Below are positions 1,770 through 16,401 of a stretch of DNA of 16,401 bases, in pieces; position 1 is the stretch's first letter; every line of letters starts with the position of its first letter. The position numbers and the translations under genes were made by a program. The notes under the pieces are model-generated. The model did no database searches. It worked only from the letters and a program-made list of their open reading frames with translations, and was not told the DNA's origin. Origin of the DNA: Candidatus Hadarchaeota archaeon (lineage in GTDB: Archaea; CAYQAE01; CAYVLA01); contig CAZUNO010000038.1 in the NCBI GenBank assembly GCA_964621445.1, positions 1 through 16,401 of the forward strand, written 5' to 3'.

Positions 1770-2015
1770 ATGGTGAAATATACAACCATTAAGATACGCC
1801 CAAAAACCCGGGAAAGCCTTGCTCGACTGAAAGGTAACCACAGGCAGACATACGAAGAAATTATCAACAAGCTCCTGAAAATCGTTCCCGAAGGAGACGA
1901 TGAGGGGGGATACACCGATGATTTCCGAGCTGCGCTCCTTGACTCCCTGGTTGATTTCAGGAAGGGACGTTCCCTAACTAATGATGAGCTAAAGAAACGC
2001 CTAGATTTCTTGTAA
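1770..2015 (+). CDS. Archaeal-type ribbon-helix-helix antitoxin-like protein (RelB/VapB-type), no adjacent toxin
   Basis: 81 aa. TTIKIRPKTRESLARLK...TYEEIINKLL is a typical RHH N-terminus, followed by an acidic linker and SLVDFRKGRSLTNDELKKRL, as in archaeal type II antitoxins. Confidence 0.8.
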   Translation: MVKYTTIKIRPKTRESLARLKGNHRQTYEEIINKLLKIVPEGDDEGGYTDDFRAALLDSLVDFRKGRSLTNDELKKRLDFL

Positions 2016-2039: not shown

Positions 2040-2096
2040 ACCCAGTGTCTTTGACTCTCATTTTTAGCAAGTCCATAGATCCGGAGCATGATCAGG
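2040..2096. repeat. Degenerate direct repeat, copy 1 (copy 2 at 3749-3806); 3' flank of paralog 1
   Basis: Manual alignment gives 43/58 identical columns with 3749-3806, including TCCATAGAT and GATCAGG cores. Confidence 0.7.
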
Positions 2097-2108
2097 ACTG
2101 GAAGCCCA

Positions 2109-3365
2109 TTACTCATCGCTGGAACTCAGGCGCGATACTCCGGCCTCCCTGTACAGCCTCCTCCTGACCATAAGCGACCACAGCACATAGCTGGAGACCA
2201 TCAGGGTCCCCAGCAGCGCACACCACTCCGTCACGTAGACCCAGAAAAGGGCCTCGTCCTTGGCCCTCGTCGCCTCCTCCCTGATCCGGATGTGCTCCGC
2301 CCTAGCCCGGTCCATGGCTTCCAGCGCCTCCTCGAAATCCCCGTCAAGATAGGCAGCCTCGGCCTCGGCCCTGATACCGTTCACCGACTCCAGCTCGTCC
2401 CTCAGCTTCCGCGGATTCCCCCCAAATTTCTCCACCCAGTCCAGCATGGAACCCACAAGCGAACCCATGGTGTCGAACTCAATGAACTCATTCATCACCT
2501 GCATGAAGATATAGGGGTCCCTGGGCAGGACCTTGTCAGCAACACGGTATACCAGATACATCATGGCCTGGGGAAATACATCCCACGTACGTTCCCAGAG
2601 GTCGGGGCCGTCGGGGAACTCGGCCGCAAAGTTCAGTACCGCCCCCTTCCCAACCTCCCAGAAGGTCATCAATGGGTGGGTCCGGGGATCATTATCCAAT
2701 ACCGCCCACTGGTGGCTGCCCTCCCTCGGTATATGGTTGCTAACCTGCAGCAATGGAGGCGATTTCTCCCATGGTAATGCCTTCATAAGCGACTCGTTTC
2801 GATCGGTTACCCTGACCCAGTACACACCGTGGAGCAACGTCTTCCTACGGTCCACCGTCACCGGCAGGAGGGGACCCAGGGTTGTGCCCACCCAGTCGAT
2901 ATTTAGGTCCTCGTAAACCACCACGCCCAGCATTAACAGACCCATTCCCCCGGACTCGATAGAGTCCGACATCCAGTGAATCCACCTCGGCTTGAAGAAC
3001 CGGTTGTTCGCAGCGCTCAGCATCAACATGTCGTAACTGGCGAGCAAGCTCTCCTGGGTCCTGGGCATGTAGACCCTCATGTTCCTAACGGCCTCATCCT
3101 CTCCGCCTGACAGGCTAACTATTCCGGTGGGAACGAAAGTGAGCTCGATTGCCGGGTCGTAGGTGATGACGAAATAGCTATTGTACCTCGATCCCCTCAA
3201 GCCAGTATTAACATCTCCGATGCAGAGAACCCTTACCCTGCCCTGGGGCCCAACCCTCTGGGCCACCCCCGGCGGAAAACTCCCCATTAACAGAAACCCG
3301 CACAACAGGGCAATCCCGGTTCCAGCCCACCGCGCACCAAGCATGAATGAAGTCCCCTCAGCCAA
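2109..3365 (-). CDS. Membrane-anchored surface protein, paralog 1 (signal peptide, class I GATase-like/DUF1355-like domain, helical stalk, C-terminal TM)
   Basis: 418 aa with hydrophobic N-terminus, RVYMPRT...YDMLMLS...GGMGLLMLG...TTLGPLLPV (GATase1-like pattern), Glu/Ala/Arg-rich helices and ALFWVYVTEW-TM-RRRLYRE. TTG start preceded by GGAG, with GCAAAAG-ATAAAT about 30 nt upstream. Confidence 0.85.
   Translation of the reverse strand: MAEGTSFMLGARWAGTGIALLCGFLLMGSFPPGVAQRVGPQGRVRVLCIGDVNTGLRGSRYNSYFVITYDPAIELTFVPTGIVSLSGGEDEAVRNMRVYMPRTQESLLASYDMLMLSAANNRFFKPRWIHWMSDSIESGGMGLLMLGVVVYEDLNIDWVGTTLGPLLPVTVDRRKTLLHGVYWVRVTDRNESLMKALPWEKSPPLLQVSNHIPREGSHQWAVLDNDPRTHPLMTFWEVGKGAVLNFAAEFPDGPDLWERTWDVFPQAMMYLVYRVADKVLPRDPYIFMQVMNEFIEFDTMGSLVGSMLDWVEKFGGNPRKLRDELESVNGIRAEAEAAYLDGDFEEALEAMDRARAEHIRIREEATRAKDEALFWVYVTEWCALLGTLMVSSYVLWSLMVRRRLYREAGVSRLSSSDE
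2143..2314. repeat. Near-identical direct repeat shared with paralog 4 (10668-10839)
   Basis: 172 bp with 5 mismatches by manual comparison; 2215-2314 is identical to 10740-10839 over 100 bp. Confidence 0.9.
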
Positions 3366-3748
3366 ACTCCAATCATTACGCTCTGGCTCTTCCCATTTAT
3401 CTTTTGCGCCCTGTTCTCGAATACGGTCAGATCAATATCTGATCTATAGACCGACTAGTTGTCGAAGGTCGCCGGCGGTATGCCCTGGAGGACGAGTGGG
3501 AGTTCAGCAGGTAGAGATGCAGTGACGACATCAGGATGCAGAGCGAGGCAGGCAGTGGGGTCAGGTGCTTCGGGTTCTATACTCAGAACTTGAGGAACCA
3601 ACCCAGATTCATATGCACATCTCCCGAGTCCGAGCAGCCTTCGTGGGGCTGAGGGCGATCTCGATTGTGGATGGCAGGAGCACGCTCAATCGGGTGGTGA
3701 AGGGAATTGACATCAGGGATTGGCACCCCGTGGAAGAGAGGAGCACCA

Positions 3749-3850
3749 ACTCAGGGTCGGTCACTCTTCATTCTTGATAAATCCATAGATTGGGACCACG
3801 ATCAGGCATGCGCCCACAGTATATAGCTCGAGACCATCAGGGCTCCCAGC
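3749..3850 (-). pseudogene. Relic of a family member's 3' end plus downstream flank, with an internal deletion
   Basis: 3814-3850 matches 2178-2214 at 32/37 nt (LGALMVSSYILW vs LGTLMVSSYVLW). 3749-3806 matches 2040-2096. About 80 bp between the blocks is missing relative to paralog 1. Confidence 0.75.
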
Positions 3851-3971
3851 GTGAACTTCTGCCCAATAGTTTTCCATCTCACGGTTGATCTCGTGTATAT
3901 TCATGCACGCGAAGATGTCCGGGATTTGCCTATAAGTAAAAATATAAGAAAGCAAAAATGAGTTCGTCCCG

Positions 3972-5298
3972 ATGCGCGCAAAAACCCAAAAATCTCTTCT
4001 TTTCCTAACCTTGATGCTTCTCTCCACCATCAATGTTAGTTCGGTAAGCGACCCCTCACGTGGAGACCCCTTGATAATCGACGTACTTATGATCGACAGG
4101 ACACTGGGCCAGGGGGGAATGTTCTATAAAAGGCTGCAATCCGACCCCAGCATCTCTGTACTGGCGGTGCCCCAACTGGGGCATTACTCCATATTCTTTC
4201 TAAACAAGAACCCGGACGCCATCAACAGGGCAATGCGGATTTACATGCCCAGGAACTACAGGGAGTTGGTGGAAAACAGGGACATGATACTTCTCAGGGA
4301 AGCCTCATGCGGGAGCGTAGAGATACCGCAAATTATCTTCAAGCACGACTGGATGACGTGGTTCGTGAAGGCTGTCCGGGAAGAGGGCATTTCATTCTCC
4401 ATGTGGGGCGGAGACGCCTCCTGGGGAGGGAATGGAGAGGGCGACTACAAGTCATGGGGGGGAGACAATCCTGGATTCCATATTGCCCTTCAAATCCCTG
4501 GGTGGATACAACCCACCTGCGAAGGCAGAATTTCAGAAGCCGCATTTCATGGATCCGGAACACCCGCTGACCCGACTTCCCTGGAAGAACTCCGGCCCAG
4601 TCGAACTTCTCAACAGAGTTGAGCCCAAGGATGGAGCCCAGTTAGTGGCAACCGCCGTGGGACGAGGGCGAATAATTGTCCAGGGCGCGGGGCCCAACAA
4701 GGAGGTCGTACGCTCTCCCGACAAGAATTTCCCTTGGATAGCATGGTGGGAACAGGGAGAGGGCAGGGTGCTGGGGGAAGCCCAGGTTTTTAGCAGCTGC
4801 GGGACCACGAACAGGATGCTCAACGACTGGAGATGGTACAACGACTTCGTGACCTACCTGATTTACTTCGGCGTAGGCAAGGAACTCCCGGATGACATAA
4901 TAAGAGCCCACCGTCTCAGGGTCGAGATCAACACCTACCAGGACAAGGCTTCATTATACATCTCGCTTCTCGATTTCGTTGAGGAGTTCGGTGCTTCAAC
5001 CCAAGAACTCTACCAGGAATTCGACCAGATAAACCGGATGGAAAAGGAGGCCGAGGAAAAATACCGTCAAAACGAATATGACGAGGCCGCGGAGATATTC
5101 GAGGAGATCAACGCCGCCTGGAGGTTGCTGGACTCCAGGACCATGGAGACCAAGAAAAGGGCCCTTTTTTGGGTTCATATGATTGAGTGGTTCGCGGTTT
5201 CGGGGACGGTCATGGTTACTGGAGTTTTCCTGTGGGCTCTGATAATAAGGAAAAAGCTATACAAGGATGTCAAAACAACCCGACCCCGACACCTCTAG
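3972..5298 (+). pseudogene. Membrane-anchored surface protein, paralog 2, split by a +1 frameshift in a G7 tract (4456-4462); 441 aa if restored
   Basis: ORF 3972..4622 carries the signal peptide, RIYMPRN and MWGGDASWGG. ORF 4432..5298 carries ETILDSILP...ALFWVHMIEW-TM-RKKLYKD. Removing one G gives YKSWGETILDSILPF, collinear with DWGLTPLQEVMPV of paralog 3. TATAAG lies about 28 nt upstream of the ATG. May be an intact gene with a homopolymer sequencing error. Confidence 0.8.
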
Positions 5299-5404
5299 TC
5301 GCCTCCCGCTACCTTCTTTCCGGTCTTCTGTAATGAATCCCAAATGACCTATGATTTAAGCAGGGTCAATTGAAACATACCATGGTAAAGTGTTCTCATC
5401 TCGA

Positions 5405-6730
5405 CTAGGCCATACCGTCCTTGCTCGCCTTCACTGCACCCCTCGATTGTTTCCCTTCCTCCACTTTTAACTCGCTGGCTCGGCTATCTGGGTCAACATC
5501 TCTACACCAGTTGGCGAATTCCTTACCCATACTGGCAACGCGTTCAGGGTACTTACTGGAAAGGTCCCGGGTCTCCCCGAGGTCATCATCCAAATTAAAC
5601 AACCCCTTCCCGTTCCGATGAACCACCAGCTTCCAGGGTCCCTCCCGAACCGCGAACTGCTCGCCCTGGCGCCAGAAGATAAAACGCTTGGGGAGCTTGC
5701 CCTCCCCTTCAAGCAGGGGGAGAAAAGAGCTTCCATCCAGATATCCATTGCCGGGTCCCGATAGCGAGGCGATATCAAGAATGGTCGGTAAAAGATCGAA
5801 CAGCATTACCGTCTCATCGGTCGTCCGTCCCTCCCCGACCCGTCCCGGCCAGCTGGCAACTGCAGGAACCCTGTGTCCTCCCTCCAGCATCGAGCCCTTG
5901 GCCCCGTTCAGAGGGCGGTTATCACATATCAGCTCGTGACCCCCATTATCGGAGGCGAAAAAGAAGAAGGTGTCATCTCTTAGCCCCAGCTCCCCAAGGC
6001 GAGTCATAATCCTTCCCACGCTGGCGTCCATGGACTCCACCATCTCCCGGTAGGCCTTCTTCTTGTCCGGCGCGCTGCCATATTTCCTGTCCTTGCTGTC
6101 GTTATTCACACCTTTCTCAAAGTCGGGCGGGTCGCCCGGTCCCTGCCAGGGGAAATGAACCATCCAGTCGGCAACGTAAAGCAGAAACGGTTCCCTGCGA
6201 TGATCATCTATGAAGTCCATGGCGTAATCGGCGATTAGCTCCGTGGAATACCCATCCTCGTCCTCCACCAAGGTCTCGTTGTGATACCATGACCCTTCTC
6301 CCCAGCGGTCGAAACGGGAATGATGGTCCATACCTCCGTTGTTTCCCCGGTAGATATCGAAGCCCATCTTCCGCGGGCTTTGGATAGGTATGTAGCCGGT
6401 GTGATATTTACCGAACATGCCAGTAGCGTATCCTGCCCGCCTGAATAGGTGGGCAAAGGTCAGTTCATCGGGCGGCATACCCAGAGACCTGGATTTATCC
6501 CGATCATGGCTCAGGCAAAACTCCACCCCCGAACGTTGTTGGTATCGGCCGGTTAAGAGCCCGGCCCGCGTCGGGCTGCACATGCATCCGTTGGAGTGAC
6601 AGTCCGTGAACCGCACGCCGCTATCGGCCAGGGCATCGATGTTGGGCGTTCTATGGGATTTGCTTCCATAGCAGGAAAGGTCGTCATACCCAAGGTCATC
6701 TGCAAGGAAAATGACGATATTGGGCTTCAT
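5405..6730 (-). CDS. Sulfatase (formylglycine-dependent, Cys-type; arylsulfatase A-like)
   Basis: KPNIVIFLADDLGY, signature CSPTRAGLLTG (CxPxR), GYATGMFGKYH, SDNG, KGSMLEGGHRVP and WKLV motifs. No signal peptide. GAGGAG RBS upstream. Confidence 0.95.
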   Translation of the reverse strand: MKPNIVIFLADDLGYDDLSCYGSKSHRTPNIDALADSGVRFTDCHSNGCMCSPTRAGLLTGRYQQRSGVEFCLSHDRDKSRSLGMPPDELTFAHLFRRAGYATGMFGKYHTGYIPIQSPRKMGFDIYRGNNGGMDHHSRFDRWGEGSWYHNETLVEDEDGYSTELIADYAMDFIDDHRREPFLLYVADWMVHFPWQGPGDPPDFEKGVNNDSKDRKYGSAPDKKKAYREMVESMDASVGRIMTRLGELGLRDDTFFFFASDNGGHELICDNRPLNGAKGSMLEGGHRVPAVASWPGRVGEGRTTDETVMLFDLLPTILDIASLSGPGNGYLDGSSFLPLLEGEGKLPKRFIFWRQGEQFAVREGPWKLVVHRNGKGLFNLDDDLGETRDLSSKYPERVASMGKEFANWCRDVDPDSRASELKVEEGKQSRGAVKASKDGMA

Positions 6731-6831
6731 CGCAGTTTATCTCCTCTCCTAGATATATGTCCCAGATGCATCTCATCACACCTGAGCAATCTAGAGATAT
6801 CAACATGCAGGTAGGGTTGGACATAACAATT

Positions 6832-6846
6832 TTTGCTATTAGCAAA
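6832..6846. promoter_or_regulatory. Perfect inverted repeat TTTGCTA-T-TAGCAAA upstream of the sulfatase; candidate operator
   Basis: 7-bp arms with a 1-nt spacer, about 100 bp upstream of the 6730 start and next to an AT-rich BRE/TATA-like stretch on the minus strand. Confidence 0.3.
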
Positions 6847-6918
6847 TGGAATCCCGCTTCTACCGAGCTTTTCCAGTGGGCTAGGTGTAAATGCAAGGAC
6901 AGATGATGGCTGCATGGT

Positions 6919-8175
6919 CTAGAGGTCGTCGTCCGAGAATTCAACTCGTGTTGCCTGCACCTTCTTGTACAATTTTCTTCTAACCATCAGGCCCCACAAG
7001 ACCGATGCACAAATGAGCAAGGTCGCGGTGATCACCAGCCACTCGGTTAGGTAGAGCCAGAAAAGGGCGGTTTGTTTCGCCTCTACCGCCAAGGCGTCTG
7101 CTTCCTCGAGCAGGGATAGAACGTGTTCCGCTTCCTTCATGCTTTTCTCAAGTTCCAGATCCACGAAGGATGCCTTCGCCTCTGCCAGGCTCTCCTCGGC
7201 CTCCGCGAGCTTCTCGTCAACCTTGCTCATGCTGGCTCCGAATCGGGAGACGAACTCCATAGTCCCGATTATCATCTGCATGTGATAACCAATCTCCCCG
7301 AATTTCTCCCTGGTGGTGTGGAGGAGCTGTGAGTCCGAGGGTGGAATAAGCCCCGCCGTAAAGTAAGCCATGTTGGACACGAAATCGGGGTAATACTTCC
7401 AGTGGATGAAGCTCACGCCGGCAGAGGTGGTGCCCCCCGCCAGGGTTCCCCTGAAACCAGTGGGGGAGGCGAAGAACCTCCCCTCTCCAACGTCCCACCA
7501 GCTCCAGCCAGGGTCGGTTCTCCCCCCACCAACCGGGCTCAGATCGGATAGTTTAACCGCACCCTGCTTGAGCTCCACCACATTGTACATGCCGAAAACG
7601 TCGTGGTCCTCGAACTCCTCCCAGGGGACGCTCTTGATAAAATCATCCTCAAATCGTGTAACCGTGTTCACCGAGAACTCTACCCGACCTGGGGTACATT
7701 CTACGGGCATAACTTCTTGCAGGGGAGTCAAACCCCAGTCCATATAATTTGCCCAACCCCCGAAGGATCCCGATCCGCCACCCATGAAGAACCCGACGCC
7801 GTCCTCCAGAAGACTGTCTCTCATCCAGACCAGAGTGTTTGGAGAGAAATGCTCGTAGGTCGCGTCATCAAACCCAACCACATCATAGTCGGAGTACTCG
7901 GACCGGGTCCTGGGCATATACAGCCTCAGCGCGCGCTTGACGATGGTCGATTCAAGCCACGCCATTCCGGAGATCGGCGTGGTCGAAAGAAGGGGATCGT
8001 TCCGGTAAATGGTGTACGGGCAGTAGGTATTGAATGGCGCACCGATGTAAAGAACCCGGATCAGCCCGGTGTTAGGGTCCCTCTTTACCTCCCTTGCCAC
8101 GGTGAGCCCGGGGAGCATGATCAGGAAGGCGAAAAGCGAAAACATCAGCCGCCTATTCCTCGACAAGGAAGACAT
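6919..8175 (-). CDS. Membrane-anchored surface protein, paralog 3 (class I GATase-like/DUF1355-like domain)
   Basis: Clearest GATase1-like signature of the set: RLYMPRT..YSDYDVVGFDD...GVGFFMGGGSGSFGG...WGLTPLQEVMPV, plus signal peptide, helical stalk and ALFWLYLTEW-TM-RRKLYKK. The ORF track starts at 8202; ATG 8175 is preferred because a BRE/TATA-like box lies 26 nt upstream and overlaps the 8202 ATG. Confidence 0.85.
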   Translation of the reverse strand: MSSLSRNRRLMFSLFAFLIMLPGLTVAREVKRDPNTGLIRVLYIGAPFNTYCPYTIYRNDPLLSTTPISGMAWLESTIVKRALRLYMPRTRSEYSDYDVVGFDDATYEHFSPNTLVWMRDSLLEDGVGFFMGGGSGSFGGWANYMDWGLTPLQEVMPVECTPGRVEFSVNTVTRFEDDFIKSVPWEEFEDHDVFGMYNVVELKQGAVKLSDLSPVGGGRTDPGWSWWDVGEGRFFASPTGFRGTLAGGTTSAGVSFIHWKYYPDFVSNMAYFTAGLIPPSDSQLLHTTREKFGEIGYHMQMIIGTMEFVSRFGASMSKVDEKLAEAEESLAEAKASFVDLELEKSMKEAEHVLSLLEEADALAVEAKQTALFWLYLTEWLVITATLLICASVLWGLMVRRKLYKKVQATRVEFSDDDL

Positions 8176-8200
8176 GGGGCTCGGGCCGCTCCTTAACCCC

Positions 8201-8215
8201 ATAAAAAACTTTCCC
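8201..8215 (-). promoter_or_regulatory. Archaeal BRE/TATA-like promoter of paralog 3
   Basis: Minus strand reads GGGAAAG-TTTTTTAT, ending 26 nt before ATG 8175, consistent with a leaderless transcript. Confidence 0.5.
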
Positions 8216-8227
8216 GCTTCCAGTGAT

Positions 8228-8394
8228 CTAGCTGTACTTCGAACCCCTCAGGCCCGAATTCACATCTCCAATGCAGAGAATCCTACCTGCCCTGGGGGCC
8301 GACCTTTTGGCCACGACGGGTTGAAAACCCCATATTAGGAGGAAACCCGCATAACAGGGCAATTCCGCTTCCAGGCTCCTCGGGCCCCAACCAT
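8228..8394 (-). pseudogene. Relic of a family member's 5' end (closest to paralog 1), frameshifted and truncated
   Basis: Minus-strand pieces GSGIALLCGF / QKVGPQGR / RILCIGDVNSGLRGSKYS* match paralog 1 GTGIALLCGF / QRVGPQGR / RVLCIGDVNTGLRGSRYN. DNA similarity to about 3183-3344 is obvious. Several indels and stops. Confidence 0.85.
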
Positions 8395-8546
8395 CCTTTA
8401 CTTCTATTGGCGCGGATAATGATGGACTATAACTAGAAAATCAGCTGTCCCGAAGTCGGTGTAAACCCTTAAAGGGGATTGCCAAACAAACCTCCAGGAG
8501 ATCCTCTGCCCTGAAACAAACTGATCCTTCCCCAGCCTTCCGGCCC

Positions 8547-9344
8547 TTGAGACGCTCCCTTGTATTCAAGGGCGTCGAGCGAGAGTATTTCCTGGCCCTG
8601 CCCAGGAATTTCGATCCGGACGAAATGCACTGGCCCCTGGTCTTCGTCCACGGCGGCGGTGGCAACGCCCGAAGAAACCGAAAGGGCATCCTAATCCACC
8701 GTTTCATGAACGAGCTTGACCTGCCAGCCATTTTGATCCTGCCCAGATTTATCACCGAGGACAAGCAGGTAAGCCGTTTTCCATCGCTCGGAGAGGGAGC
8801 CTTCCTGAAGGAGGCACTCAAGGATGTTTGGGCTGAATTCAGCTTCCACCGAAAGGTCCTGCTGGGCGGGTACTCCATGGGTGGGCAGTTCTCCCACCGG
8901 TTCGCACTTTTCAACCCCGGCCTGGTCCGGGCCTGCGCCTCCCTTGCCGCCGGAACCTGGTCGACCCCGGACGGAAGGTTGTTGACCGAGAGTTACGGCG
9001 AGGTCCGGGACCCGGAGACCTTCCTCTCCTGCAGGGCGAATGCGGGGAAGGTCCCCGAACGACTTCATGACTTATTCGACGGGCGAACGGCCGAGGTGGC
9101 CGGTCTTACCGCCGAGAAGGAAGCGGAGAAAATCCCTTTTCTGGTCATGTGCGGCAGGCTCGACCCGCGCTTCGACATCGCCAGGAAATTCGCCTCCAGC
9201 CTCAGGGAATTCGGGTTCGAGGTGGAGACGGAATGGCCAAGAACACCACACTCATCAAGCTGGGAAAAATACCGTGATGAATACCAGAGATATCCCCGGC
9301 ATGTTATAGAGTTCCTCAGGAGATGCATCGCGGATGGTGAATAG
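8547..9344 (+). CDS. Alpha/beta-fold hydrolase (esterase; PHB depolymerase/feruloyl esterase-like)
   Basis: REYFLALP...WPLVFVHGGGG, nucleophile elbow GYSMGG, FLVMCGRLD (Asp) and TPH (His). The frame is open upstream to a CTG at 8511 preceded by GGAG, so the start may be 12 codons earlier. Confidence 0.85.
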   Translation: MRRSLVFKGVEREYFLALPRNFDPDEMHWPLVFVHGGGGNARRNRKGILIHRFMNELDLPAILILPRFITEDKQVSRFPSLGEGAFLKEALKDVWAEFSFHRKVLLGGYSMGGQFSHRFALFNPGLVRACASLAAGTWSTPDGRLLTESYGEVRDPETFLSCRANAGKVPERLHDLFDGRTAEVAGLTAEKEAEKIPFLVMCGRLDPRFDIARKFASSLREFGFEVETEWPRTPHSSSWEKYRDEYQRYPRHVIEFLRRCIADGE

Positions 9345-9385
9345 ACGGGGGAGTTGCAGGGGGAGGAGTGATACCTTGGACCCAT

Positions 9386-10516
9386 TTACTGTGGGTTCCA
9401 TCTCCTCTGAACCATGTCCCTGAAATTACCTATGCGGTGGAAGGTGAGGAAATTGGCATCGTGCCTGTTGGCGGCCCCGCCAAGCCCGTCACCGTAGGCG
9501 GTGCGGGACAGGGCAAGTATATCCCGGCCCTCGAACACCCAGTCCGGGTACTGGAAGGCGTGTGTCTCGTACTCAGGATGGTAGGCGATGGCCTCATGAA
9601 CCACCCATTTCCGGAGATCCTCGCTGCTGGAGACGGCGAGGCAGTTCCGGAACTTGCCGGCCTTCCCGGGTTCCAGATGACCGAGGTCACTCGGGTGGAT
9701 GGGGTTCACGACCGACCAGTATCTCCCCGTCTCCGGGTCAAACCGGATGGTGAACTTCTTGCTCGTCCCCCCCGGGAACTCCAGGTAACCGCTGCTTGGG
9801 TCGAAACTCAGGTTCCTTCCGTCACCGGTGACCTCGATAATCGCTGCCGTGCTGTGCCCCCGGTGCAGGGCTATCCTGGTAACTATGCACATCCCGCCAT
9901 CGGGCCTTACCACCGCGTTGCCCTCCCGCCAGGACCTCATTCTCTCGTCCTGGCAAGGGGCACACTCCAGCTTCTCGGAGAAGGTCCAGCTGGAGGACCT
10001 CAACAAATCGGCATCCGCAGGCACTGACATCATGAACGGGCGCTGCCCCTCCGTATTCCTGTCCTCCATGGCCCGCCACAGACGGCCTTCATGCAGCACC
10101 ACGGGGACGGGGGCACAGTGGTACTTCCCCCGGGCCAGAACCCCGCTATCCTCGTCCAGTGGAACCGTCCACTCCCTTCCTCCGTCTGTGGAACGCCGGA
10201 TCACGACATCCCCATTCTTCCCGCTAGTTCCAATGATGTACAGCCCGCCACGGTGGGTGAAGAGCGTGGACCAGAACTGTCCCTCGGGGGAGGCCAACTT
10301 CTTCCATGTCCGGCCGCTGTCCGTTGACCCGAATACCACCGAGGAATTGTACCTGCCGCGGTCTCCTCCGGGGCCAAAGTAATCGTTGGAGGCCACGTAG
10401 CCACCCTCTGGAAGTACGGCGATGCTCGGGGAGCCAATGTACCTCTCGGTTCTGGCCGGTGAATGGTTGATGACCACGCCAGGCACCTTTGAAAAATCCG
10501 GGTTTTCGTCGCTCAT
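9386..10516 (-). CDS. Sialidase-family/BNR Asp-box beta-propeller glycoside hydrolase-like protein
   Basis: 376 aa with Asp-boxes STDSGRTW, STDGGREW and SSEDLRKW, plus YIGSPSIA, WREGNAV and AFQYPDW...HDANFLTFHRI. No signal peptide. GAAAAGG-TTTTTAC about 25 nt upstream of the ATG. Confidence 0.85.
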   Translation of the reverse strand: MSDENPDFSKVPGVVINHSPARTERYIGSPSIAVLPEGGYVASNDYFGPGGDRGRYNSSVVFGSTDSGRTWKKLASPEGQFWSTLFTHRGGLYIIGTSGKNGDVVIRRSTDGGREWTVPLDEDSGVLARGKYHCAPVPVVLHEGRLWRAMEDRNTEGQRPFMMSVPADADLLRSSSWTFSEKLECAPCQDERMRSWREGNAVVRPDGGMCIVTRIALHRGHSTAAIIEVTGDGRNLSFDPSSGYLEFPGGTSKKFTIRFDPETGRYWSVVNPIHPSDLGHLEPGKAGKFRNCLAVSSSEDLRKWVVHEAIAYHPEYETHAFQYPDWVFEGRDILALSRTAYGDGLGGAANRHDANFLTFHRIGNFRDMVQRRWNPQ

Positions 10517-10633
10517 GAGGGGGACTTAGGAAATTAGGAAAGTAAAAACCTTTTCAACATTCCTAAGAAAAAACAAACATTCCGGTCAGGATGTTCCTTG
10601 AGGGTTCGGTTCTAGATTCAATATGATTGGGGT

Positions 10634-11920
10634 CTATTCCGCCTTTAACCGCAGGCGTGAGACTCCAGCCTCCCTGTACAGCCTCCTCCTGACCATCAGC
10701 GACCACAGCACATAACTCGAGACCATCAGGGTCCCCATTAGCGCACACCACTCCGTCACGTAGACCCAGAAAAGGGCCTCGTCCTTGGCCCTCGTCGCCT
10801 CCTCCCTGATCCGGATGTGCTCCGCCCTAGCCCGGTCCAAGATGGTCAGAGCCTCCTCAAATGACCCGCCAAGGTAGGCATCCTCGGCCGCTTCCCTGAT
10901 ACCGTTCACCGCCTCCAGCTCGTCCCGAAGCTTCTTGGGATTCCCTCCAAATTTCTCCACCCAGTCCAGCATGGACCCCGCCACCGATCTCATCTGGTTG
11001 TACTCTATGAACTCAATCATCACCCGCTTGAAGAGGTATGGATCCTTGGGCAGGGTCTTTCCCACCACCCTGTAGACCAGGTACATCATGGCCTGCGGGA
11101 AAAGGTCCCAGTTATTGGCCCAGGCCCTGGTCCCCGCCGGAAACGCGGTGGCGAAGCTCAAAGTGGTCCCCTCCCCAATATTCCAGAAAGTCATCAATGG
11201 AAAGATCTGGTCCCCTCCCACCAATCCAGCCCACTCCCGGCTGCCCTCCCTGGGGATTTGGTTATTCAGGTTAGCAAGGGGAGGGGACTTTTCCCAGGGC
11301 AGTGCCTGCATCAGTTCCTCGTCACTATCCAGTATCCTTACGTAAAATAGACCATTGAGGAACCTATTCACGGGGTCCACGGTGACCGGCAGGACACGGC
11401 CCAGCGCGGTGCTCACCCAATCGAAGTCACCCGCCCCTCTGTAAACGACGGATCCCAGGGTCAATAATCCCATGCCGTCCACCTCGACACCATCGGCCAT
11501 CCAGCTGATCCATTCCGGCTTGAAAACCTTGTTATCACAGTCGCTCAGTATTATCGATTCGTAATTTTGGACCAGGTCATCCCGGGTGCGTGGCATGTAA
11601 ACCCTCAAGTGTCGCACTGCTTCGTCAAAACCACCCTTGATCATGTCCGACCTGGCGAGGACGAAGGTAACGTCGATCGCCGGGTCCTCCTGGATTATGG
11701 AATAGCTGTTGTACCTGCCCACGTGGCCAACATCCCCCATGCAAAGCACACTTACCTTACCCCCGGCTCCCACCCTTTGGGAAGGACATGGATGGAGCCC
11801 GAGGAGCAGCAATATCCCCACTGCCATTGCCCACCTCCACACGGGGACTCCAGTTAGAGAAGCCACCAAGCCCCTCGAACACCGGAAAATCTCTCTCATA
11901 ACCATCATTAAAGGAACCAC
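10634..11920 (-). CDS. Membrane-anchored surface protein, paralog 4
   Basis: 428 aa, collinear with paralog 1 (QRVG..G.V.VLC.GDV, RYNSY, RVYMPRT, LPWEKSPPL), with the last ~60 aa almost identical. The true start may be ATG 11908, which has GAGGAG upstream. Confidence 0.85.
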   Translation of the reverse strand: MVPLMMVMREIFRCSRGLVASLTGVPVWRWAMAVGILLLLGLHPCPSQRVGAGGKVSVLCMGDVGHVGRYNSYSIIQEDPAIDVTFVLARSDMIKGGFDEAVRHLRVYMPRTRDDLVQNYESIILSDCDNKVFKPEWISWMADGVEVDGMGLLTLGSVVYRGAGDFDWVSTALGRVLPVTVDPVNRFLNGLFYVRILDSDEELMQALPWEKSPPLANLNNQIPREGSREWAGLVGGDQIFPLMTFWNIGEGTTLSFATAFPAGTRAWANNWDLFPQAMMYLVYRVVGKTLPKDPYLFKRVMIEFIEYNQMRSVAGSMLDWVEKFGGNPKKLRDELEAVNGIREAAEDAYLGGSFEEALTILDRARAEHIRIREEATRAKDEALFWVYVTEWCALMGTLMVSSYVLWSLMVRRRLYREAGVSRLRLKAE

Positions 11921-12057
11921 TCCTCGATGACCGGGACGGAATAATCAGCCCACTAATATTTCTAGTGCCACCCGGTATCAAGAATCGCTTCACCTGATCA
12001 TAACGGGAACGGCAGAAACATCTAATTCCCGCAGAGACAGAACTCACCTCAGAATCT

Positions 12058-12155
12058 CTATCGCTTCCTGGTAATCCCCACCTCGCGATAGAGTTGCCTC
12101 CTGCCCCTCACCCTCCATAACACGACACCGGTTAGGGTCAGTAGGACGAAGATAC
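12058..12155 (-). pseudogene. Probable relic of a family member's C-terminal TM and tail
   Basis: GIFVLLTLTGVVLWRVRGRRQLYREVGITRKR* resembles VMVTGVFLWALIIRKKLYKDVKTTR and VLWSLMVRRRLYREAGVSR. The upstream part of ORF 12058..12294 has no family similarity and overlaps the divergent promoter region. Confidence 0.55.
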
Positions 12156-12293: not shown

Positions 12294-14099
12294 ATGCGTG
12301 GAATTATTCCCGCCATATTGCTCACCGCTTTCCTGCTTCCCTTTAGCGTTGCCGCTTCCTATGAGGACATGGAGCAGCTGGACCAGGCAGCGACCTTCAG
12401 CTTCGCCATAATGAGCGACAACAAGGGCGATTCGCCCTATAGCAGCGAGGAGTTCGCCAACATGGTTGACTCCATCAACCGAAGCAGCGACGCCTTCGTG
12501 ATCGGTCTGGGCGACCACGTGAAAAGGGGATGGTCCAACGACTTTCTCCAGTTCCTCGATGACGACGAGTGGTGGCACAGGTGGTTCTACCCCAACGTGG
12601 CCGATGGCGAAAACGAATATTACGGCCAGGGGCAGGGCGACTGGGGGGCCGGGGCACCCATCCTTGACGAGGTCGATATGGACACCAGACCAGGTGTTGA
12701 AATCAGGGATAACGGAGCTGAATACTACGCCAGGATCGAGGTAAAGGGCTACACGATCCATCTCATCCAGCTAACATTCTCCGACACGCCATCCGACCCC
12801 GACACGGCATTTACCGAGTCCAGCAGGAACTACCTCATCGAGACCCTAAATGGTATAGACAAGGGCCAGAAGGACATGGTGATAGTGGGGGCCCATTCCA
12901 TAGGGGGTAGCTGGTTGGAGGTCCTATCTGAGGAAAGAATCGAGGCGGTCATGGACAAGACCGATCTCCTACTCTCCGCAACCACCCATTACTTCACCAG
13001 AATCATCCCCCGCGGCTACTCATACAGTGGTGCTCTCTGCATAAACACCGGATCGATAACCTATCCCTCGGGAGGCAGCGAACCGGGATATGTCCAGGTC
13101 CACGTCCTGGAAGACCCTCTCCGTCTGGTGACCCACTACCACGATGCCCGCCAGGAGGAGAGGGTGATCAGATGCGGCAGATATTCATTTGTAAAGGAGA
13201 TAGATGGCATAATACTGGAGGACATCTGCTCCTACGACCCGGACATACCGGCCTGTTGGCCCGAGGACCCCGCCACTTCCCCTCCAGAGGTCGTGCAGGG
13301 AGAGATATTCACGGTCACCTGCAGGGCGAAATACCGATCCGTCCCCGTCAAACCAAACGTAACCCTCGACCTTTACAAGGTAGAGGGAGACAAGCTGCCC
13401 ATGTACGATGACGGGTCCCCGGGAGATGGCATTGCCGGGGATGGTGTTTACTCCCTGACCACCCGGATGCCATCAGATGCCCGGCTCGGAGAGCACCACC
13501 TGGACCTGATCATGGAGTACGGGGAGGAGAACACCGACACCGAGGTGGAAGTAACCGTGCTCCCGGCAGGAGACTACCTAATATTTTCTGATCGGATGCG
13601 CCCGGGCTGGATTAAGGAGGAGATGGGAGGCGCCAATCTCACACTGTCGGCGGATGACCCGAACAAGGGATCGGTCTGCCAACACCTATCACTGGACAGG
13701 GGCGGTGGTGCCCGCTACAGCTATATAGTCGAGGAGGGATTTCCGACATCCGGCTTCGATACACTCGAATTCTTGATAAGACCAGTTGAAATGACCCCCG
13801 AAAGCATCTTCATTCAATTATCGTCAGAAGGTGCTCCAGGCACTGTAACCCTTAGCGATCTTGGACTGGACTTTCCCGAGGGATCATGGACCCCGGTGAG
13901 AGTGCCTCTGGAATCCTTGGGGATGAACGGCACGTATCTTTCATCCATCAGAATCTCCTCAACCGTCCCCACCGACTTATACCTAGATGATCTCAAAATG
14001 TCAGTGGAAATGGATCAAAAAATCCTGTACCTACTAATCATTTGGCTAGGATTTTGTTGCTTTGAGAGAGCAGAACCTGCCAAAACGGCGACCAGCTAG
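12294..14099 (+). CDS. Secreted multidomain protein: calcineurin-like metallophosphoesterase, Ig-like domain with choice-of-anchor X-type motif, CBM-like beta-sandwich, C-terminal hydrophobic anchor
   Basis: Signal peptide; FSFAIMSDNKG, GLGDHV, GENE, VGAHS and TTHYF in metallophosphoesterase motif order; MYDDGSPGDGIAGDGVYS; FDTLEFLIR...SWTPVRVPLESLG...LYLDDLKM; terminal ILYLLIIWLGFCCF. Confidence 0.75.
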   Translation: MRGIIPAILLTAFLLPFSVAASYEDMEQLDQAATFSFAIMSDNKGDSPYSSEEFANMVDSINRSSDAFVIGLGDHVKRGWSNDFLQFLDDDEWWHRWFYPNVADGENEYYGQGQGDWGAGAPILDEVDMDTRPGVEIRDNGAEYYARIEVKGYTIHLIQLTFSDTPSDPDTAFTESSRNYLIETLNGIDKGQKDMVIVGAHSIGGSWLEVLSEERIEAVMDKTDLLLSATTHYFTRIIPRGYSYSGALCINTGSITYPSGGSEPGYVQVHVLEDPLRLVTHYHDARQEERVIRCGRYSFVKEIDGIILEDICSYDPDIPACWPEDPATSPPEVVQGEIFTVTCRAKYRSVPVKPNVTLDLYKVEGDKLPMYDDGSPGDGIAGDGVYSLTTRMPSDARLGEHHLDLIMEYGEENTDTEVEVTVLPAGDYLIFSDRMRPGWIKEEMGGANLTLSADDPNKGSVCQHLSLDRGGGARYSYIVEEGFPTSGFDTLEFLIRPVEMTPESIFIQLSSEGAPGTVTLSDLGLDFPEGSWTPVRVPLESLGMNGTYLSSIRISSTVPTDLYLDDLKMSVEMDQKILYLLIIWLGFCCFERAEPAKTATS

Positions 14100-14415: not shown

Positions 14416-15648
14416 TTGCAACCAAACCTACTCCTGATCATGGTGGACTCCCTGCGCCCTGACTTCCTGGGCCAGACAAAGAATTCTCGCAAGGTAACCC
14501 CCTGCATCGATTCGCTTGCCCAAGCCGGTGTCTTCATGGAGAACGCCTTCTGTCCCATGCCCTCTAGTGCTCCATCCAGGGCAACCATATTCACCGGCAG
14601 ATTCCCCCATTCCCACGGCGTTAAGGTGAACGACCTGCCCCTGCCGGCCCGGGAAACCACCCTAGCCCAGATACTGGACGAGGCAGGATACACCACGGCT
14701 GCGGCGCCAAAGCTAGATGAGGGTTTCGAGAAGGGATTCCAGCATACGGACATATTTGACGCCTACCGGAACAACCGAGAGGCCGGACACCACCAGGAGG
14801 AGAGCACCCTCATAACCGACGCCGCCATAGAATGGATACAGGGCGGCGGAGAGCCCTGGTTCCTGTGGTTGGACTACGAATCAATACACGAGCCCTGGCG
14901 ACCGCCCGAACGCTTCCGGTCACTGTTCGATGAATCCTACCAGGGAGACGACCTTGACAGCCCCAAGATGTACCAGCCCGGCCTATCCCATAAAGACCTG
15001 CTCCATATCCGCTCCCTGTACCGGGCAGAGGTAGCAATGATGGACGAGAACATCGGGCGGTTGTTGAAAACGCTGGAGAGAGCCGATCTGAGAAAATCAA
15101 CCATTGTGATCCTGCTCAGCGACCACGGGGTCTTCCTGGGCGAACACCAGTTCTTCAAGAAGCCCCCCTTCCTCTACGATCCACTCATTAAATCCACCCT
15201 GATATTCTCCTGGCCCGGGGAACTGGCATCCGGTCTGCGTGTGGACTCCCTGGCCCAAATGGTGGACGTATTACCCACCATACTCAGTATCCTCGACCTC
15301 CCGGCACCCGAGGAATGCCAGGGGCGCATCCTAGGTCCCATTTTAGATGATGGATGTGAGACTAACCACGAGATCTTCGTTGAGTTCTGCGAATACAAAG
15401 GAACCGCCGTCAAGGCCGTCCGTAACCGGAGATGGAAGCTAATCCATCATCGGTCAGTGGGAGACATACCCTGGGCAGGGGATTACTCCCCCGGAGAGGT
15501 TTTCGAGAAGGCAGGTCTGGAAAGAGATATGCTATTCGATCTCTCCAGGGATCCTCACGAGGAAATCAACGTTCTCAGTGAAAATCCCCATATCGGCGAA
15601 AAGATGCGAACCTCCCTATTGGACTGGATGATCGATAACGAAGGCTAA
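14416..15648 (+). CDS. Sulfatase (formylglycine-dependent, Ser-type; choline-sulfatase-like)
   Basis: QPNLLLIMVDSLRPD, signature SAPSRATIFTG (SxPxR), HEPW, SDHG..LGEH, KK..LYD and WKLI...LFDLSRDPHEEIN. TTG start with GAGG upstream; no signal peptide. Confidence 0.92.
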   Translation: MQPNLLLIMVDSLRPDFLGQTKNSRKVTPCIDSLAQAGVFMENAFCPMPSSAPSRATIFTGRFPHSHGVKVNDLPLPARETTLAQILDEAGYTTAAAPKLDEGFEKGFQHTDIFDAYRNNREAGHHQEESTLITDAAIEWIQGGGEPWFLWLDYESIHEPWRPPERFRSLFDESYQGDDLDSPKMYQPGLSHKDLLHIRSLYRAEVAMMDENIGRLLKTLERADLRKSTIVILLSDHGVFLGEHQFFKKPPFLYDPLIKSTLIFSWPGELASGLRVDSLAQMVDVLPTILSILDLPAPEECQGRILGPILDDGCETNHEIFVEFCEYKGTAVKAVRNRRWKLIHHRSVGDIPWAGDYSPGEVFEKAGLERDMLFDLSRDPHEEINVLSENPHIGEKMRTSLLDWMIDNEG

Positions 15649-15763: not shown

Positions 15764-16401
15764 ATGAAGGAAAACAAGACCTGTTTTGCGTTGCTCTTCG
15801 GTAACCGCGGCTTCTTCCCCGGGTCCCTCATAGCGGAGGCCAGGGACGAGATCTCGAGCATGCTCCGGGAGTGGGGCCACGAGGTGACCATGCTACCCGA
15901 GGATGCCACCCGGTTCGGCGCCGTGGAGACCCCCGAGGAGGGAGATGTCTTCGCCGATCTCTACCAGGAAAACGAGGACCGGTGCGGGGGCATCATCATC
16001 AGCCTACCAAACTTCGGGGACGAGACCGGCACCCTATCCGCGGTCAAGGACGCCGATATACCCCTTCTGATCCATGCCTACCCCGACGATCTGGACAAGA
16101 TGGCCCCCGACCTCAGGCGGGACGCGTTCTGCGGCAAGCTCTCCATCATGGACGTTCTACGCCAGAACGGGGTCCGTTTCACCGCCCTCAAGCCCCATGT
16201 GGTCAGCCCCCAGGACGAAAGATTCAAGGAGAACATCGATCACTTCGACAGGGTTTGCAGGGTCACTAGTGGGATGAAGGACCTGGTAATCGGGGCCGTC
16301 GGCGCCCGGACCACCCCCTTCAAAACGGTCAGGGTGGACGAAATCGCCCTCCAGAAGCGGGGGATCACCGTCGAGACCTATGACCTCTCCCGGATAATTG
16401 A
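15764..16401 (+). CDS. L-fucose/L-arabinose isomerase family protein, N-terminal part (runs off the right edge)
   Basis: Translated by hand, absent from the ORF track: MKENKTCFALLFGNRGFFPGSL...TRFGAVET...GIIISLPNFGDE...RRDAFCGKLSIMDVLRQ...IGAVGARTTPFKTVRVDE, open to the window edge. These motifs are characteristic of the FucI/AraA-like family. Confidence 0.9.
   Translation, partial: MKENKTCFALLFGNRGFFPGSLIAEARDEISSMLREWGHEVTMLPEDATRFGAVETPEEGDVFADLYQENEDRCGGIIISLPNFGDETGTLSAVKDADIPLLIHAYPDDLDKMAPDLRRDAFCGKLSIMDVLRQNGVRFTALKPHVVSPQDERFKENIDHFDRVCRVTSGMKDLVIGAVGARTTPFKTVRVDEIALQKRGITVETYDLSRII

Follow-up and report, generated by a model that had tools for sequence, protein, structure and literature searches.

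The GATase1-like family PF07090 (formerly DUF1355) has been solved in STM3548 (2gk3), STM1381 (3soz) and a protein of P. limnophilus (3rht), all three single domains of about 250 residues with no assigned function, two of them titled cytoplasmic. Proteins of the same fold are known to bind glycans. This holds for the GATase1/ThuA-like CBM87 domain of Aspergillus Agd3 (PMC7229062) and for the levan-binding domain of Bacteroides Bt1761, which is accompanied by immunoglobulin (Ig)-like domains and lies beside an importer (10.1101/2022.08.15.503959); for GIFT domains, sugar binding has merely been proposed (PMC7226087). Membrane-bound proteins with a related fold exist as well: those of the arCOG01314/DUF4350 and GldG/GIFT types (OST48/Wbp1, IFT52) combine a signal peptide, a GATase-like ectodomain and one C-terminal transmembrane (TM) segment, and arCOG01314/GldG-type proteins have Ig-like neighbours (PMC5898192). 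Here we describe a family represented by four genes and three relics in the window, which opens contig C38 of a Candidatus Hadarchaeota genome and is 16,401 bases long. Its members set a GATase1-like head on a helical stalk and a conserved membrane anchor. Variable pockets on a near-invariant anchor suggest a previously undescribed repertoire of sugar-capturing modules. The literature searched, which covers only a minority of subscription papers, holds no description of the family, its expansion, its avoidance of glycosylation sequons or the three-gene cassette considered below.

How large is this repertoire? The source genome (G000; 3.21 Mb in 89 contigs, 96% complete) was compared with three relatives of the same archaeal family (G001-G003) and one genome of a sister family (G004), together the five genomes of the phylum in GTDB 232. 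An archaeal nature is consistent with archaeal 16S primer matches and with AglB. Searches with tblastn found 148 family loci in it, and a hidden Markov model (HMM) of the family retrieved 170 open reading frames (ORFs). Of these, 122 cover at least 75% of the model, one of them lacking its N-terminus and being actually a split gene; the remaining 48 fall into 32 loci, of which 15 are split, 10 fragmentary and 7 cut at contig edges. Read from stop to stop, the 122 ORFs occupy 156.5 kb or 4.9% of the assembly, a slight overestimate, and the family is the largest paralogue cluster of the genome, with 154 members against 46 in the next. Matches, which are not copy numbers, ran from 115 to at least 150 in the relatives: 148 of 150 scored sequences in G001 (161 candidates), 115 of 136 in G002 and 150 of 150 in G003 (244 candidates). 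The sister-family genome yielded only three head-only matches, in proteins of other architecture; there, two GATase1-like proteins (L037:1192-2910 and L040:742-2292) end in double zinc ribbons, the former also with CARDB, an architecture that is possibly receptor-like. A single-query search matched none of 37 archaeal genomes outside the archaeal family, and a library of representatives at 50% identity contained 318 matches at E ≤ 1e-30. The two best-matching DNA read sets are microbial-mat metagenomes of one study.

A preliminary description of the window had proposed a diversified repertoire of stalked, membrane-anchored proteins, locally expanded and actively turning over by birth and death. 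The repertoire itself, made up of non-enzymatic-looking proteins, is upheld. The expansion is not local: with 122 near-full and 32 broken or cut loci it is genome-wide, although the window contig is the densest of those above 15 kb (2.19 intact copies per 10 kb). Birth and death are evident in the split, fragmentary and edge loci, but the data do not support turnover of a fast, diversifying kind. The median identity between paralogues is 25%, nearest paralogues share 34-76% and none exceeds 80%; clustering gives 47 groups at 45% identity and 62 at 50%, hence roughly 50-60 sub-groups. Among 249 sampled outside sequences lies the best match of 72 of the 116 members compared. Because nearest paralogues are this divergent, best matches often lie outside the genome and pockets are kept between close homologues, the repertoire appears to be old and under purifying selection. 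Several other origins were considered and rejected. Local gene conversion finds no expression in pairs within 15 kb, whose similarity does not exceed that of the rest (median 0.264 vs 0.258; 5 of 95 reach 45% identity, vs 206 of 7286 other pairs). Phase variation is not a general mechanism, as G/C runs of at least six mark the break in only 2 of 15 split loci and family genes hold no excess of runs. For a mobile element or shared promoter there is no recurring flank k-mer, and the window has no long DNA repeats beyond the paralogues. GC content at third codon positions is 0.645 for the family vs 0.615. Among longer proteins, a search for fused forms gave three weak matches, two of them vWA-GATase1 proteins, to which we give little weight.

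The model predicted for copy D of the window (predicted local distance difference test 93; predicted template-modelling score 0.87) comprises an alpha/beta head at residues 25-257 and a three-helix stalk at 263-350, from which a helix continues unbroken through the membrane to residue 385; the FG[GA][NS] motif forms the turn between stalk helices 1 and 2. An N-terminal hydrophobic segment is present in 118 of the 122 near-full members. Fold searches place the solved PF07090 proteins first, at Z scores of about 25 (3rht Z 24.8, root-mean-square deviation 2.2 over 209 residues; 2gk3 Z 24.4; in a further comparison Z 24.6-24.8 with deviations of 2.2-2.4), followed by ThuA-like proteins, IFT52, Agd3, OST48 and Bt1761. 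Sequence profiles agree (E 6e-20 to 2e-18), and PF07090 is annotated on many homologues of the family, but its gathering score of 27 bits is not reached in the window, where copies A and C score 25.4 and 19.4 and the halves of copy B and copy D have no match. What sets the family apart from the solved members is a signal peptide, a stalk, a conserved TM segment with its tail, an RxYxPR motif and a number of copies near 150. No characterised family matches the window copies in Pfam, NCBIfam, profile or fold searches. A catalytic site was sought in the head columns and none is conserved: the best columns hold Cys in 16 and His in 20 of 122 members, no more than 5 of 122 have Cys at columns 133-141, where the nucleophile elbow would carry the Cys of the Cys-His-Glu triad of class I glutamine amidotransferases, and the most conserved pocket residue with a reactive side chain is S141, in 73 of 122. 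The TM segment and tail are the most conserved part of the family (W376 117, E381 116, W382 116, G393 109, M400 118, Y406 108 and T/S412 119 of 122). An HMM of this anchor retrieves only family ORFs and relics, so the anchor is private to the family; as it finds no other ectodomain, a general sorting signal is ruled out. Collectively, these observations support a stalked, membrane-anchored and non-enzymatic-looking repertoire.

Variation on the head is concentrated on one pocket. Among 365 distinct sequences, we compared 90 reciprocal close pairs (median identity 65%, 12 of them within the source genome) with 3000 distant pairs. The loops that follow the central strands, at the active-site position of GATases, share 0.78 identity in close pairs and 0.11 in distant pairs, whereas the loops of the opposite face share 0.64 and 0.31; the pocket loops are the more alike in 76 of the 90 close pairs. 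Corresponding values are 0.62 and 0.15 for the lid region, 0.58 and 0.25 for the stalk, and 0.72 and 0.52 for the TM segment and tail. The pocket is conserved within sub-groups only and is mildly richer in aromatics (Trp 4.6% vs 2.9%, Phe 5.2% vs 3.7%). Since they are kept in close pairs and lost in distant ones, the pocket loops are predicted to determine specificity, and the pattern points to binding sites that differ between sub-groups and are each kept by purifying selection, not to antigenic variation.

Some members have company. One cluster, here c8, is a family of 16-17 Ig-like type II membrane proteins in the source genome and adjoins family genes nine times against 1.3 expected; another, c14, whose stalk is shorter and whose tail is not conserved, is remotely homologous and GATase1-like (profile probability 93.5, E 2e-7), and nine of its ten genes neighbour a c8-cluster gene. 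The three relatives hold 31, 23 and 41 matches to c8 and 17, 12 and 25 to c14 (G001, G002 and G003, respectively); none was found for either in the sister-family genome. At 82 loci around 95 c8 matches in the relatives, a co-oriented family gene lies directly upstream of c8 in 37, c14 directly downstream in 35, and both in 10; by our estimate gene share alone would give about 2 of 82 upstream family genes, although many loci are orthologous, the 29 pairs examined falling into 13 groups. A family or c14 gene lies within 400 nucleotides of c8 in 74 of the 82. All four genomes share one family-c8 pair, which stands ahead of genes that read as leuC/D/B-like from their sequences, and ABC-2 permease genes precede it in both genomes with upstream sequence (G000 and G003). 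The source-genome locus, L151:975-8945 on C13, runs from an ABC-2 ATPase and two ABC2_membrane_3 permeases through the family gene and c8 to the leuC/D/B-like genes. The c8 model shows a TM segment and an Ig-like sandwich with a large insertion, whose best fold match (Z 9.1) is only generically Ig-like; Pfam, NCBIfam, PDB sequences and Atlas returned no match. Linked members are scattered over the family tree (16 label changes vs 31 when shuffled) and anchor conservation is equal in linked and unlinked members (0.65 vs 0.64), for which reasons c8 alone would not explain the conserved anchor.

The ectodomains of the family avoid N-glycosylation. In the source genome they carry 20 N-x-S/T sequons against 159±12 in shuffles, an eightfold depletion, and about 12 of the 20 occupy one homologous site. 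Control motifs stay near expectation except D-x-S/T (202 vs 291 expected). The relatives are depleted as well (8 vs 45 expected in 47 rows; 20 vs 134 in 129 representatives). By comparison, cytoplasmic proteins have 1776 sequons against 1952 expected and other type I proteins 829 against 360, and sequons are enriched in c8 (286 vs 103) and c14 (136 vs 59). Because c14 shares the fold and is yet sequon-enriched, the GATase1-like fold seems not to force the depletion. The depletion implies that the proteins would pass AglB, of which the source genome has two copies, and hence be exported.

The source genome encodes 46 proteins of a sulfatase cluster, all of which lack signal and TM segments and so look cytoplasmic, and also large oxidoreductase and sugar-isomerase-like clusters; these labels come from reading representative sequences, that of the sulfatases being backed by Pfam on two window copies. 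Within five genes of family members lie 26 sulfatases against 15±4 expected, 21 UroD-like proteins against 13 and 8 FAD oxidoreductases against 3, all modest enrichments; Gfo/Idh/MocA proteins are not enriched there. Importer matches comprise 6 BPD_transp_1, 1 SBP_bac_1, 14 MFS_1 and 1 SSF, together with EamA, OPT, TctA, CitMHS and a BPD_transp_2 from the scan of 40 membrane proteins, probably a low count beside sugar specialists such as Thermotoga or Thermococcus. For a shared translocase, 40 of the 60 proteins with at least eight predicted TM segments were scanned, and 9 had no Pfam match; none could be linked to the family.

Based on these observations, we propose that the family consists of non-catalytic ligand-capture subunits, probably for sugars (glycans), that dock on a shared putative membrane partner; we put the probability of this model at roughly 0.45. 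Oligosaccharides or other (sulfated) sugars would be the most likely class of ligand. Sec export and cleavage of the signal would place the head about 45 Å above the membrane on its helical stalk. Binding would then take place at the C-terminal edge of the central sheet, with a different ligand for each sub-group, in the manner of CBM87 in Agd3, where conserved aromatics stand at the same sheet edge as the family pocket. The conserved face of the TM helix and the tail would dock all members interchangeably on the partner, some of them jointly with c8 and c14, and the partner would pass the ligand to uptake, and so to the cytoplasmic sulfatases and sugar enzymes. A bolder version, in which conventional sugar ABC importers are replaced by modular uptake through some 150 interchangeable unglycosylated subunits, with c8 and c14 as co-subunits and a Glu-bearing TM helix inserted into a shared translocase, we consider rather unlikely.

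CBM87 (6nwz, Z 14.6) and Bt1761 (8aa2_G, Z 11.7) have the same fold and, like the family, no triad, but they share only 11-12% identity with it and are domains of an enzyme and a lipoprotein that have neither a helical stalk nor a conserved TM segment; moreover, no SusCD equivalent is known in an archaeon. The arCOG01314 and GldG/GIFT proteins resemble the family in layout and in fold (Z 13.8-15.1; an Atlas feature score of 0.81 is a lead only). They differ in that the window copies have no DUF4350 match and that c8 and catabolic genes, instead of vWA or MoxR, recur as neighbours, and the literature examined describes neither a helical stalk nor a large expansion for them. A region apart from the family, G000:C3:188010-198997, resembles by eye what we take to be a DUF58/transglutaminase/DUF4350 (arCOG01314-type) cluster. 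Many dispersed specificity subunits on one uptake module are familiar from ABC solute-binding proteins and ECF S-components; these probably have a different fold, the family matching GATase1-like proteins best in the searches made, and neither a permease nor a shared module was identified for it. We regard the head as a divergent PF07090-type domain and the family as a repertoire that would work like solute- or glycan-binding proteins, unlike GATase enzymes, the arCOG01314 system or sortase substrates with a Pro motif.

Several observations weigh against this model. The closest solved relatives are cytoplasmic and of no known function (PMC13432705), and both ligand and partner are putative. 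Within five genes of family members, ABC ATPases are not enriched (15 vs 16 expected) and proteins with at least eight TM segments are slightly depleted (14 vs 22). Only 7 of the 122 source-genome members are co-oriented neighbours of c8, most family genes being solitary, and the window itself contains neither c8 nor c14. Similarity of family and c8 partners correlates over 29 pairs (rho 0.31) but not over the 13 non-redundant ones (0.05, p 0.33). Copy C of the window has a close homologue on a G003 contig on which its neighbours have no matches. Regarding the pocket, the enrichment of aromatics is mild (Trp 4.6% vs 2.9%), misalignment accounts for part of the low loop identity in distant pairs, the close pairs lack independence, and the loops were defined after the column profile had been seen, one of them (203-206) being picked from it. 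Finally, the stalk is also poor in sequons (2 vs 37), and docking on a transporter leaves an avoidance that spans the whole ectodomain unaccounted for.

That last point is better met by an adhesin or coat, in which oligomers or a surface layer would bind mat exopolysaccharide or neighbouring cells and the anchor would serve self-assembly; avoidance over head and stalk fits tight packing. Solved DUF1355 relatives were deposited with 3-6 chains per entry, no convincing S-layer protein of the Thermococcus/Methanococcus type was found apart from a borderline PF05124 match in one of five genomes, and the sandwich of c8 resembles pilin and adhesin domains, if unspecifically (best Z 9.1). However, a structural coat has no need of roughly 50-60 sub-groups with individually conserved pockets, the genes are dispersed without a shared upstream motif, and the S-layer search covered one family only, so that we judge a coat unlikely, albeit the foremost of the alternatives. 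The conserved pockets could also belong to surface enzymes with divergent active sites, for instance sugar-modifying hydrolases whose catalytic residues differ between sub-groups. Enzyme families normally retain their catalytic residues, and here no reactive pocket residue is conserved family-wide, S141 with 73 of 122 being the best; this makes the idea the least probable of those considered, even though the loops lie at the GATase active-site position, are kept within sub-groups and commonly contain Asp, His and Ser, and STM3548 belongs to a putative carbon-source pathway (PMC13432705).

The invariant anchor invites two further explanations, each improbable. The proteins might be sensory receptors, the stalk-TM helix relaying binding to the 15-residue tail and a shared adaptor regulating catabolic genes. 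A variable pocket joined to an invariant TM segment and tail with a conserved Tyr and Thr/Ser would suit this, as would the Glu at the outer TM edge (116 of 122) and T/S412 (119 of 122). Against it, no MCPsignal domain occurs in the four genomes of the archaeal family, 1-2 weak Pkinase and 1-7 HATPase_c matches per genome offer little capacity for about 150 inputs, and a single shared adaptor could not tell those inputs apart. With much the same small likelihood, the C-terminus might be cut by an archaeosortase near the conserved Glu, leaving the protein lipid-anchored or shed, which would be compatible with a ligand-binding head. Two exosortase/archaeosortase genes with intact Cys, Arg and His occur in all four genomes and none was found in the sister-family genome; an unclassified one immediately precedes a broken family gene in the source genome, and motif, TM segment and basic cluster reproduce the tripartite layout of known substrates (PMC6098224). 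Archaeosortase substrates of the PGF/PEF-CTERM type carry a Pro motif on unrelated ectodomains, however, whereas the family anchor is found on no other ectodomain, is predicted as one unbroken helix and matches no NCBIfam CTERM model. A separate class of 48 [IVLMF][PGSTA]E-TM proteins in the source genome (4-19 for control residues) fits better, since 75% of them have Pro near the Glu (1% in the family), their TM segments vary in length and their sequons are enriched (347 vs 149), and the adjacency to the sortase-family gene is lost in the other genomes. The two source-genome archaeosortase genes are L195:3755-4588 (C19) and L196:4345-5157 (C2); one stands in a lipid-linked-sugar operon (best model ArtC, below cut-off) and the other is unclassified.

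Within the window (Table 1), the four full-length copies and three relics noted in the preliminary description are all homologous and real, with the qualification that copy B is frameshifted and not one ORF. R[VLI]YMPR[TN], VxxFG[GA][NS] and ALFWxxxxEW can be read in all four translations, as had been claimed, and the RRxLY tail in three, copy B having RKKLY. Copies A and D share 63% identity; the remaining pairs share 26-32%, in long alignments of E 1e-27 to 1e-38. In copy B, the G7 run at 4456-4462 marks the frameshift between ORFs 3972-4622 and 4432-5298. Run X2 provides a 1237-base contig (depth 4.7) across 4069-5306 that has one G fewer and is otherwise identical, and run X1 (depth 2.3) shows no deletion there; as both depths are below 5, the frameshift is either polymorphism or error. 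The tree groups copy C with two genes located upstream of c8, and in G003 the copy is matched at 78% of nucleotides over 1193 bases. Shortly beyond the window end (C38:16983-18257) there is a fifth copy, cut inside its TM segment by the end of the contig.

The copies had also been called dispersed and not in tandem, which stands for the intact ones, but each relic is co-oriented and directly upstream of an intact copy, and local tandem duplication followed by decay therefore did happen here. Relics 1 and 2 derive from A-like copies. Relic 1 matches the TM segment and the 3' flank of copy A, at 85% over 41 nucleotides (2174-2214, E 8e-7) and at 72% over 75 nucleotides (2023-2096). Relic 2 matches the first 165 nucleotides of copy A at 78% (E 6e-28), copy A being its sole other match in the genome; its match at the protein level is 60% over 40 residues (E 4e-9). 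At 8284-8512 a run X3 contig from a diverged strain replaces 227 bases, most of relic 2, by 196 other letters. Relic 3 is recognised by the C-terminal HMM (E 7e-5; 15 bits in translations) and by tblastx. None of the five catabolic-type window proteins has an evident signal peptide, and the match of the sugar-isomerase-like one to SftI is weak.

Table 1. Family copies, relics and other genes in the window
Feature	Position	Strand	Description
DUF7557 protein	1770-2015	+	81 residues; antitoxin-like by eye; 3' flank duplicated in relic 1
Family copy A	2109-3365	-	Intact; 418 residues from first possible start; probable start ATG 3344, giving 411 residues; closest paralogue copy D
Relic 1	3732-3850	-	What is left of a decayed A-like copy: TM-coding stretch with 3' flank; tandem, upstream of A
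Family copy B	3972-5298	+	Frameshifted in the assembly; closest paralogue C7:39565-40845 (65-69%)
Family copy C	6919-8175	-	Intact; ATG 8175; longest ORF 6919-8202
Relic 2	8233-8394	-	5' end of an A-like copy, frameshifted, coding for signal peptide and first strand; tandem, upstream of C
Family copy D	10634-11920	-	Intact; probable start 11827, 397 residues
Relic 3	12061-12141	-	TM and cytoplasmic-tail remnant; tandem, upstream of D
Secreted protein	12294-14099	+	601 residues; choice-of-anchor X match (E 1e-7); N-terminus metallophosphoesterase-looking by eye; C-terminal hydrophobic segment after VEMD, like the xE-TM class
Five catabolic-type genes	5405-6730, 8547-9344, 9386-10516, 14416-15648, 15764-16399		Two sulfatases, alpha/beta hydrolase, BNR-repeat protein, sugar-isomerase-like protein

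What would such a repertoire mean? In an uncultured archaeal family, this one uncharacterised gene family fills about 5% of each of four genomes. Its avoidance of sequons, beside a homologous family enriched in them, offers a clean test case for the cost of glycans to a surface protein. If the pockets bind different sugars, the family would amount to a natural library in which a single scaffold carries roughly 50-60 conserved specificities. The proposed model, if true, would assign a testable function to the DUF1355/GATase1-like fold and would show by what route dozens of cytoplasmic sulfatases are supplied in an archaeon that has few known importers.

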